DNA from: Promethearchaeota archaeon
GTDB lineage: Archaea > Asgardarchaeota > Lokiarchaeia > Sigyniarchaeales > Promethearchaeaceae
Assembly (NCBI GenBank): GCA_016933055.1
Contig: JAFGBS010000004.1
Location: 240,001-272,000, forward strand
Reading direction: 5' to 3'
Length of the DNA: 32,000 bases
The notes below the pieces were generated by a model. The model ran no database searches. It worked only from the letters and a program-made list of their open reading frames with translations, and was not told the DNA's origin. This document shows, piece by piece, positions 28,405-29,682 of this stretch. A program made the position numbers and the translations under genes. How positions within the stretch are numbered: the stretch's first letter is position 1; each line of letters starts with the position of its first letter.

Positions 28405-29682
28405 ATGACTATTACTATTACCTTAAGCTGGTTTCATAGAAGAATCGGCCCAACAATATATTATGAATATCCAGAGTCTTCATTACAACCTGATGAACTA
28501 ACTAGAATACCCGATCTCATGGATATGAGGTTTGAGGAAGGATTTTTCAACCATGGATTTGAAAATTTGTATTTATTCAATTACTTTTTTGAAATTAGTT
28601 CTTCATGGGCGCGCGGTCAAAAAGAAATGCTCTTAATCTCCGTTTGTTTCAGCAATCCCATTTCTACACAAATCCAGCATGAAATTCTGGTCCATTGTAT
28701 TGATTTTGCAAATAAATTAAAAAAAACTAAAAACCTATTTAAAGCGTTTTATGAAGATGGTCCCCCTTCAGGGGAATTTCTCGTAAATGTGAATGATAAT
28801 GAGGCTATTAAATCTTTTGACAAGGATCTAAAAATGTGGTTACGGGACCTATATTGGAAAATAGTCTCATTTTCCAGAGAGAAATCCGAAGAAGAAATTA
28901 TTGCAGACCTACTCAGCCAAAAATCTGTATATGCAATTATTAAATTTTTATCCAACGGACCGGTCCCCAAAGAAGATTTAGAAAAATGGTTTTCCCAGAA
29001 ATACCCCGATCTACAATTAGATGACATCTTAACCAAATTAGAATCCGAAAAATTCATCTTTCAGAACGAAATAGGATACGATACATTTGTACTATTAGTA
29101 AAAGAAACAACTGTTCAGAGATCACCCCCTGATTGTATTATTACACTAATTCAGGATAAACTAGAATTGTCTGATCTAACAACCGAATTCTTGGATCGAG
29201 TAAGAAATTTTTTTGAAGAATACACTCCCTCAACAGAAGATTCCATTGAACTTTTAAAATTAGTAGCAAATCCTGAAATTTATAATGTGTTATTACAATT
29301 ACGTTCGGGCCCCCTTCCAAAAAATCAAATTTTGAGTATGATTGATAGCGAACCGGTAAAAAATCTTATGGAAACACTCAAGATTCTCAATGAAAAGAAG
29401 ATAATTGACGAGTTTGAATATAAGGGTGAATCTTTAATCTTATTAATCGACGACATCCAATTTTCAACTTCATTTCCCAGTTATTTATCCAAGCTTACTG
29501 CAAAAAAACCTCATCCCACTATTGCAAAATCCTTTAAAACCACCAGATCTACTGAAAAAGATCCCGGTAAGCGGGAATTAAAAGGATCGGAATTAGGGAT
29601 TCTGAGTGAAGACGTCTTCAATAAGCTAAAAAATATGTCAAAGCAGAAGGGTGTGAAAAAGGAGGAAGAAAATGACGGATAA
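28405..29682 (+). CDS. uDENN/longin (folliculin/SMCR8/NPRL2-like) N-terminal domain followed by winged-helix repeats
   Basis: N-terminal 'ITLSWFHRRIGPTIYY' and 'FFEISSSWARG' match the uDENN longin pattern. Two wHTH-like segments ('IIKFLSNGPVPKEDL', 'VLLQLRSGPLPKNQI'). Confidence 0.7.
   Translation: MTITITLSWFHRRIGPTIYYEYPESSLQPDELTRIPDLMDMRFEEGFFNHGFENLYLFNYFFEISSSWARGQKEMLLISVCFSNPISTQIQHEILVHCIDFANKLKKTKNLFKAFYEDGPPSGEFLVNVNDNEAIKSFDKDLKMWLRDLYWKIVSFSREKSEEEIIADLLSQKSVYAIIKFLSNGPVPKEDLEKWFSQKYPDLQLDDILTKLESEKFIFQNEIGYDTFVLLVKETTVQRSPPDCIITLIQDKLELSDLTTEFLDRVRNFFEEYTPSTEDSIELLKLVANPEIYNVLLQLRSGPLPKNQILSMIDSEPVKNLMETLKILNEKKIIDEFEYKGESLILLIDDIQFSTSFPSYLSKLTAKKPHPTIAKSFKTTRSTEKDPGKRELKGSELGILSEDVFNKLKNMSKQKGVKKEEENDG

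Follow-up and report, generated by a model that had tools for sequence, protein, structure and literature searches.

The window analysed here is the whole 32,000-nucleotide (nt) stretch of DNA from a Promethearchaeota archaeon, and the element in question is a gene on its plus strand (28405-29682), an open frame from an ATG that encodes a protein of 425 amino acids (aa). The peptides ITLSWFHRRIGPTIYY and GFFNHGFENLYLFNYFFEISSSWARG occupy residues 5-20 and 46-71 of this protein, and the codon of Arg70 lies at 28612-28614 (28405 + 69 x 3); frame and translation bear out the open frame, both peptides and the arginine position given in a first-pass annotation of this DNA. We read the gene as encoding a cytoplasmic small-GTPase regulator built like NPRL2 and acting by the mechanism proposed below, with a probability of roughly 0.55. 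Its parts and neighbours are collected in Table 1.

Table 1. Parts of the longin gene, genes that follow it, and giant genes elsewhere in the same genome
Feature	Position	Strand	Evidence
Whole gene, NPRL2-like: longin, two winged helices, basic tail	28405..29682	+	open frame, homologues
Longin domain, residues 1-161	28405..28887	+	AF2 model, VIA-align, Foldseek
Gly15-Pro16, "GP motif", start of strand 2	28447..28452	+	conservation, HMMER and hhalign to NPRL2
beta4-beta5 loop, residues 66-72 (S-S-W-A-R-G-Q), candidate arginine finger Arg70	28600..28620	+	conservation, local alignment
Winged helix 1, residues 162-240	28888..29124	+	AF2 pLDDT 87-93, VIA-align
Winged helix 2, residues 277-356	29233..29472	+	AF2 secondary structure, weak NmtR match
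Low-confidence tail, residues 358-425; conserved helix 402-413 (29608-29643)	29476..29679	+	AF2, charge
147-aa Asgard-specific module, invariant Cys pair	29672..30115	+	homology, fusions, complex prediction
90-aa winged-helix protein (Pfam HTH_45, E 3e-6)	30125..30397	+	Pfam, neighbourhood
133-aa Roadblock/LC7 protein (Pfam Robl_LC7, E 3e-6)	30557..30958	+	Pfam, neighbourhood
282-aa PD-(D/E)XK-family protein (Pfam 3e-5), after Roadblock gene	31090-31938	+	Pfam; 283-aa gene in the same place in L006
Giant genes together with the arginine-less paralogues that follow them	C11:120833-126812; C2:270625-275813; C35:29342-34299		

In the whole-protein AlphaFold2 (AF2) model, an alpha/beta domain at the N-terminus is followed by a long helix, a pair of winged helices and a disordered basic tail. 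At the N-terminus this model was weak (predicted local distance difference test, pLDDT, 44-74) and its Foldseek matches were marginal; a domain model of residues 1-162, built from a 116-sequence alignment, was used instead. The domain model reached pLDDT 94.4 and a predicted template modelling score of 0.89, and it shows the canonical longin order b-b-a-b-b-b-a-a (b1 3-11, b2 15-22, a1 29-41, b3 46-52, b4 55-65, b5 73-82, a2 88-107, a3 129-161). G15-P16 opens strand 2 in this model, and R70 sits within the loop joining strands 4 and 5.

Structural comparison of the domain model with VIA-align gave the best match to FLCN chains (8dhb_J, Z 13.8, root-mean-square deviation 2.6 A over 136 residues; others 12.9 and 12.7), followed by NPRL2 chains (9o5a_H, Z 12.6; others 12.3 and 12.1), NPRL3-type chains (12.4, 12.3), Npr2 (12.2), Lst4 (12.1) and the solved Lokiarchaeal longin 8yqg (12.0). 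Generic longins of the SNARE, adaptin and TRAPP groups (VAMP7, Ykt6, Sec22b, sigma-adaptins, sedlin) scored Z 10.1 or less. The Foldseek check that the first-pass annotation had proposed placed FLCN, SMCR8 and NPRL2 among the best matches: the first seven hits in the PDB were chains of GATOR1, SEAC and FLCN complexes (E 5e-5 to 6e-4), while the top ten in AlphaFold Swiss-Prot were SMCR8 and NPRL2/Npr2, with SMCR8 first (E 9e-6), followed by DENND11, DENND6, Lst7, C9orf72 and FLCN. Structure neighbours in the ESM Atlas were annotated as NPR2, SMCR8 and Folliculin. By its modelled fold, the N-terminal domain is thus closest to the longins of FLCN, NPRL2 and SMCR8, above those of SNAREs, adaptins and TRAPP.

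Sequence comparison added a resemblance in the two motif regions. The FLCN peptides cited in the first-pass annotation proved exact, since phmmer searches of the PDB located them at FLCN 2-21 and 139-165 (chain 6ulg_L) with R164 as the arginine; the single one-residue gap claimed for the alignment of the two segments did not hold, as the BLOSUM62 alignment requires a gap of four residues. Aligned locally against the whole protein with BLOSUM62, FLCN 139-165 chose residues 49-71 and placed R164 on R70, at a score reached by 7 of 2000 shuffles, and the score of NPRL2 8-41 against residues 4-24 was reached by none of 2000. Judged from these alignments, the likeness to the FLCN and NPRL2 peptides exceeds chance. 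Searched by sequence against the PDB, neither the protein by itself nor a 17-sequence profile returned anything relevant, and a 116-sequence profile had human NPRL2 as its top match in the whole PDB (E 0.069, GP region). Against a vertebrate NPRL2 alignment, hhalign paired residues 2-36 with NPRL2 7-41 (Prob 80-83%, E 1e-5), and both HMMER and hhalign aligned G15-P16 to NPRL2 G20-P21. By topology of the model, the R70 loop is the same loop that carries Arg78 in NPRL2.

A convergent or chance likeness, in which the domain would be a generic archaeal longin unrelated specifically to the eukaryotic GTPase-activating protein (GAP) longins, could draw on the low identity to eukaryotic relatives (9-18%), on the E value of 0.069 for the PDB profile match, and on the fact that no family in Pfam reaches the 425-aa protein. 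Yet HMMER profiles, hhalign, two Foldseek libraries, VIA-align and the ESM Atlas all put NPRL2, FLCN and SMCR8 first, and both signature motifs stand at the expected structural positions; we consider mere convergence extremely unlikely.

Sixteen homologues at 43-71% identity were found, all from Promethearchaeota metagenome-assembled genomes or metagenomes. The full-length family was present in 42 of 43 genomes sampled from the window's order, and sampling of the 25 other families of the phylum did not turn it up. With the first 160 residues as query, an exhaustive profile search yielded 463 cluster representatives at E <=1e-3, of which the best 150 served for the conservation and fusion counts of the wider family. 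W68, A69, R70 and G71 were invariant in the set of 17 homologues, where K73-E74 and F10-H11-R12-x-x-G15-P16 were invariant or nearly so; ARG and FHR.GP likewise showed no variation among 21 orthologues drawn from 20 further genomes of the order, and ARG was invariant in all 38 orthologues. Among aligned wider-family representatives, R70 was kept in 137 of 147 (93%), G15 in 126 of 129 and P16 in 122 of 129 (about 95% GP). The window's own genome encodes four further GP/Arg-type longins, with the arginine in 4/4 and GP in 3/4; a fusion paralogue at C11:29667-31157 has K-G-P. The conservation of the ARG motif across paralogues, raised as a check in the first-pass annotation, holds for the arginine in all four GP/Arg paralogues as well as in the wider family.

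The protein's C-terminal part decides which family name suits it. The first-pass annotation had remarked that the C-terminal winged helices recall NPRL2/3, and the model indeed contains two winged helix-turn-helix (wHTH) repeats, with no DENN domain at the C-terminus by AF2 model and VIA-align. This is how NPRL2/NPRL3 are built, with at least two winged-helix repeats behind a longin (Levine 2013, PMC3747258). Because winged helices stand where a DENN domain would be expected, "NPRL2-like" fits better than the label "Folliculin/SMCR8-like longin" given at first: the assignment to the FLCN/NPRL2/SMCR8 group of GAP longins stands by fold, while the family label gives way to an NPRL2-like layout. 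The tail has pLDDT below 50 at residues 368-401 and 412-425, and a motif "LGEEVFxKLKK" is kept in the closer homologues. The tail has a net charge of +6 in this protein; among the 17 homologues, 10 have a positively charged tail and the remaining seven one of -1 to -9.

The winged helices also invite a reading as a transcription factor, in which ArsR/HxlR-like winged helices would bind DNA, the longin would act as a ligand or protein sensor, and the HTH_45 protein encoded downstream would be a co-regulator. Winged helix 1 (residues 158-236) matched ArsR/HxlR/YodB-type wHTH proteins at Z 9-10 in VIA-align and the ArsR, HxlR, YodB and SqrR repressors at Foldseek prob 1.00; winged helix 2 has the same secondary structure, H-H-H-E-E-E, in the AF2 model and weakly resembled the ArsR-type NmtR in the PDB sequence search. 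HTH_45 is itself a wHTH family, and the wHTH repeats of NPRL2/3 have been suggested as possible DNA binders (Levine 2013, PMC3747258). DNA binding is nevertheless argued against because both repeats are net acidic in 17/17 homologues (-3 to -11 for winged helix 1 and -2 to -9 for winged helix 2, thus -2 to -11 per 81 residues, with charge as a proxy only), and the HTH_45 protein, counted from its translation, carries about -5. In NPRL2/NPRL3, this arrangement serves contacts with other proteins, and longin fusions recur with GTPases and signalling domains, not with DNA-related domains. A transcription factor is on this evidence very unlikely.

Among known systems, the closest in layout is NPRL2/Npr2, the catalytic subunit of GATOR1/SEACIT and a GAP for RagA/B and Gtr1 with finger Arg78, which combines a longin with winged helices in the same way, shares the GP motif, carries its arginine in the loop before the last strand, and matches the longin domain at Z 11-12.6. 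It differs in an identity of only 9-14% and in an Arg-loop sequence that is not like the one here; the archaeal protein has an extra basic tail, lacks a Pfam NPR2 match, and comes with no DEPDC5-like partner that could be found. FLCN/Lst7, the catalytic subunit of the RagC/D and Gtr2 GAP (finger Arg164), agrees in the register of "HGP" and "ARG", and the Arg loop here (S-x-A-R-G) reads closer to FLCN despite the NPRL2-like layout; FLCN ends in a DENN domain and carries a long insert behind strand 2, whereas the 425-aa protein has winged helices instead. SMCR8, which with C9orf72 forms an Arf/Rab GAP (finger Arg147), also has the GP motif and the arginine finger (PMC12290439), and its Arf-family clients parallel the longin-Arf fusions described below; it is a longin plus DENN protein with long disordered inserts, and its PDB match is weaker (7o2w_A, Z 10.7). 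In bacteria, the GAP-GTPase pair MglB (Roadblock)-MglA offers a prokaryotic platform of the roadblock/longin superfamily for a small GTPase. The Roadblock gene in the operon-like row here recalls MglB, which differs in having no such arginine finger and in being of the roadblock, not the longin, fold subtype.

Links to small GTPases come from fusions and from gene neighbourhoods. At least 18 of the 150 family representatives, counted by strict motif criteria, are longin-GTPase fusions, and all 18 keep the arginine; by Pfam the fused GTPase domain is Arf, often followed by PAS and histidine-kinase domains. A 329-aa longin-GTPase fusion (L007 8424-9413, minus strand) that adjoins an orthologue has lost GP and has W-N-K in place of W-A-R, and is a degenerate member. 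The genome holds about 21 GTPase loci. At C5:69220-70737 (L015 721-2238), a 294-aa protein joins a GP/Arg longin to the 147-aa module, and 73 bp downstream comes a Ras-family GTPase gene (C5:70177-70737; Pfam Ras 2e-40). At C11:27566-31157 (L016 7567-11158), a Gtr1/RagA-like GTPase (321 aa; C11:27566-28528), a Zn-ribbon-Roadblock protein (363 aa) and a GP/Arg longin-Arf-like fusion (454 aa) form a row; a 157-aa GP/Arg longin lies 7 kb upstream of it. A Gtr1/RagA-like GTPase (313-321 aa) is also encoded 2-3 kb upstream, on the opposite strand, in 6 of 20 orthologous loci as well as in L003 and L008, each time separated from the longin gene by HAD, parvulin and CN-hydrolase genes.

The same genome contains arginine-less relatives of the protein. 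Six further proteins of 320-390 aa share its double winged-helix part (E 2e-20 to 5e-8), and hhalign shows homology between their N-terminal domain and the GP/Arg longin (91%, E 1e-6). These paralogues carry a deletion of the beta4-beta5 loop, and GP has become G plus a non-proline in five of the six (LGV, KGI, DGL and IGA in the four aligned); one keeps LGP. Arginine-less proteins with a longin and two winged helices occur in other Asgard families too (L009, L010), and that of L009 adjoins a gene for a longin/roadblock-Arf fusion. By analogy, the arginine-bearing and arginine-less paralogues resemble NPRL2 and its arginine-less counterpart NPRL3, here within one architecture. Three of the six directly follow giant genes encoding 1312-1614 aa (L012-L014); a surface-type giant and a longin-winged-helix protein may form a recurrent pair. 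Two giants carry FG-GAP and/or CarboxypepD_reg repeats and the C35 giant has no Pfam match; the idea that the giants are DEPDC5/Iml1-like was rejected on those repeats, and a weak Itfg2 match (E 0.007, below cutoff) is accounted for by the FG-GAP repeats.

Downstream comes the gene for the 147-aa module, which has an 11-nt overlap with the end of the longin gene, stop codon included. The module carries the signature SG[VI]C-x5-C-x-[YFH]-E, invariant among its relatives, and it has no Pfam family and no significant sequence relative in the PDB; its ESM Atlas feature score (0.77) and a beta-alpha-beta-beta-alpha-beta pattern seen by eye suggest that it is possibly ACT-like. Over its full length it is homologous to the C-terminal half of the C5:69220-70101 paralogue (blastp 9e-10), and it is fused behind a longin in 10 of the 150 family representatives. 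Complex prediction for the longin and the module scored 0.59, the best of three controls reaching 0.01, with runs agreeing in at least 89% of contacts and a partner pLDDT of at least 77. The mark used for such predictions passes 58 of 80 solved complexes along with 2 of 110 mismatched pairs, and those reaching it at scores of 0.60 or less are 7 of the 80 solved complexes plus both mismatches that passed. Alone, the predicted complex lends weak support to binding; because the fusion and the gene overlap had already made binding likely, we took it as moderate support. The 147-aa protein is probably a partner subunit of the longin protein.

The two accessory genes differ in how constantly they accompany the longin gene. 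The 147-aa gene was directly downstream in 0 of 20 orthologous loci and adjoins the longin gene only in the window's lineage and in the clade of L003, L007 and L008. The HTH_45 gene is the more constant neighbour across the order: of the 20 loci, 12 have it immediately after the longin gene, 2 others carry it on the same strand no more than about 1 kb away, and in another 2 (L026 and L030) the two genes are fused. A Roadblock/LC7 gene occurs in the same neighbourhood in L003, L004, L006, L017, L018 and L024. Between the 147-aa and HTH_45 genes, L003 (7874-9064), L007 (4865-6334) and L008 (6852-8264) encode a protein of 396-489 aa without a Pfam match, which is absent from the window. Neither the 147-aa nor the HTH_45 accessory protein is known in eukaryotes.

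On the observed fold, motifs, conservation, layout and fusions to Arf-type GTPases and to the 147-aa module, we propose the following mechanism for the NPRL2-like regulator. The longin domain would form a dimeric platform, as a homodimer or with an arginine-less paralogue, one of the six, as partner, and the two acidic winged-helix repeats would serve as an assembly scaffold. This platform would dock a GTP-loaded GTPase, presumably an Arf- or Rag-like one, and Arg70, next to Gly15-Pro16, would enter the nucleotide pocket from the beta4-beta5 loop and speed GTP hydrolysis. The 147-aa Cys-pair module and the HTH_45 protein would be accessory subunits. Arg70-dependent GAP activity itself is predicted from the sequence at somewhat short of even odds.

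Several results weigh against this proposal. The Arg78 stretch of NPRL2 (55-90) on its own has no significant similarity to the protein, 1428 of 2000 shuffles reaching its score, and the profile alignment to NPRL2 is confident over the GP region only; a low-stringency hhalign extension put W68-A69-R70 on Y76-S77-R78 with a posterior near zero, for which reason the R70-R78 pairing is consistent with equivalence and is not proof of it. Pfam NPR2 (PF06218) matched neither the 425-aa protein nor its 16 homologues nor anything in the whole genome, and Pfam Folliculin (PF11704) did not match the 425-aa protein; among the 17 homologues one matched Folliculin at E 0.013, below cutoff, and the sole match in the own genome, the C11 paralogue, was also below cutoff. 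There is no GTPase gene in the operon or in the 32,000-nt window, no DEPDC5-like subunit was found, and the Rag-like GTPase neighbourhood may be inherited synteny and not coupling, because the same three housekeeping genes intervene. A literature search found no experiment on any Asgard longin GAP.

In a second account, the protein would be a non-catalytic GTPase platform, that is, a scaffold, effector or exchange factor like SRX-SRbeta, Mon1-Ccz1, TRAPP or DENN proteins, with the S-x-W-A-R-G-x-K-E loop serving structure or docking. S66 (143), E74 (141), F62 (140) and N59 (136 of about 150) match R70 in conservation, which by itself cannot mark R70 as catalytic, and the conserved loop around it could be structural. 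Fold alone cannot tell catalytic from non-catalytic subunits either, because NPRL3 and Lst4 match as well as NPRL2 and FLCN; SRX (1nrj) and guanine-nucleotide exchange factor (GEF) domains of DENND1 are among the Foldseek matches in the PDB. The fusions to Arf domains are easier to account for if the longin is an effector or platform than if it supplies a GAP finger in cis, and longins are mostly parts of GEFs (PMC3747258), most longin/roadblock platforms being GEFs or scaffolds and not GAPs (PMC3747258, PMC10933270). On the other side, the combination of GP and arginine is reported for catalytic GAP longins only and as absent from FNIP2, NPRL3, adaptins, TRAPP and DENND (PMC12290439), and the six paralogues that share the winged helices have lost the loop and GP specifically, as expected of a dispensable catalytic add-on. 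We regard a non-catalytic platform as possible but on the unlikely side.

Prior work bears directly on the NPRL2-like regulator proposed here. NPRL2-like Asgard proteins have been described (Liu et al. 2020, bioRxiv 10.1101/2020.10.19.343400, Fig. 5c), and an intact GP motif with an arginine finger in Asgard longins has been published (Traffic 2025, PMC12290439, section 2.6, Fig. 5D), which treats the GP motif as peculiar to GAP longins; possible GAP activity on ArfR or Rag/Gtr GTPases was also raised in this literature (10.1101/2020.10.19.343400; PMC12290439). The novelty that the first-pass annotation attached to an Asgard longin with an arginine finger consequently finds no support. The protein very probably belongs to this published class of Asgard GAP longins, and the sequence finding adds one member and its context to that class. 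The available main text of either paper does not describe the 425-aa family, its order-wide conservation, the arginine-less winged-helix paralogues or the 147-aa Cys-pair module.

Two further features of the window lie outside this gene row. A 174-aa protein is encoded at 25328-25852 (plus strand), and its ESM Atlas neighbours are the first longins of the Fuz/Mon1/HPS1 type and sybindin/sedlin-type longins; it represents a different longin class, of RabGEF/TRAPP type, and L006 and L008 have a gene of similar size in the corresponding place. The intergenic segment 30402-30473 (plus strand), which separates the HTH_45 gene from the Roadblock gene, reads as a box C/D small RNA: on either side of a small hairpin stands ATGATGA followed by a 12-nt spacer and CTGA, and a 5-bp stem (GTTCC/GGAAC) closes the whole. 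This segment went unreported by Rfam at its gathering threshold.

The eukaryotic longin GAP complexes GATOR1, FLCN-FNIP and C9orf72-SMCR8 regulate lysosomal Rag and Arf GTPases. For the question of their origin, a conserved, single-copy, soluble 425-aa archaeal protein that combines the NPRL2 layout with both catalytic signatures, and that has candidate partners encoded next to it and candidate GTPases in its genome, is a tractable test case. A more speculative extension, which we think rather improbable, is that the NPRL2/NPRL3 split predates eukaryotes, and that arginine-bearing and arginine-less paralogues together make up a minimal GATOR1-like Rag/Arf GAP tuned by the 147-aa Cys-pair subunit, possibly ACT-like and redox- or ligand-sensing; if so, the system would represent an archaeal precursor of Rag switching under nutrient control. 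Should Arg70-dependent activity turn out false, the reading of an "arginine finger" in Asgard longins would need revision in the literature; should it be true, the GAP-longin mechanism would date from before eukaryogenesis.

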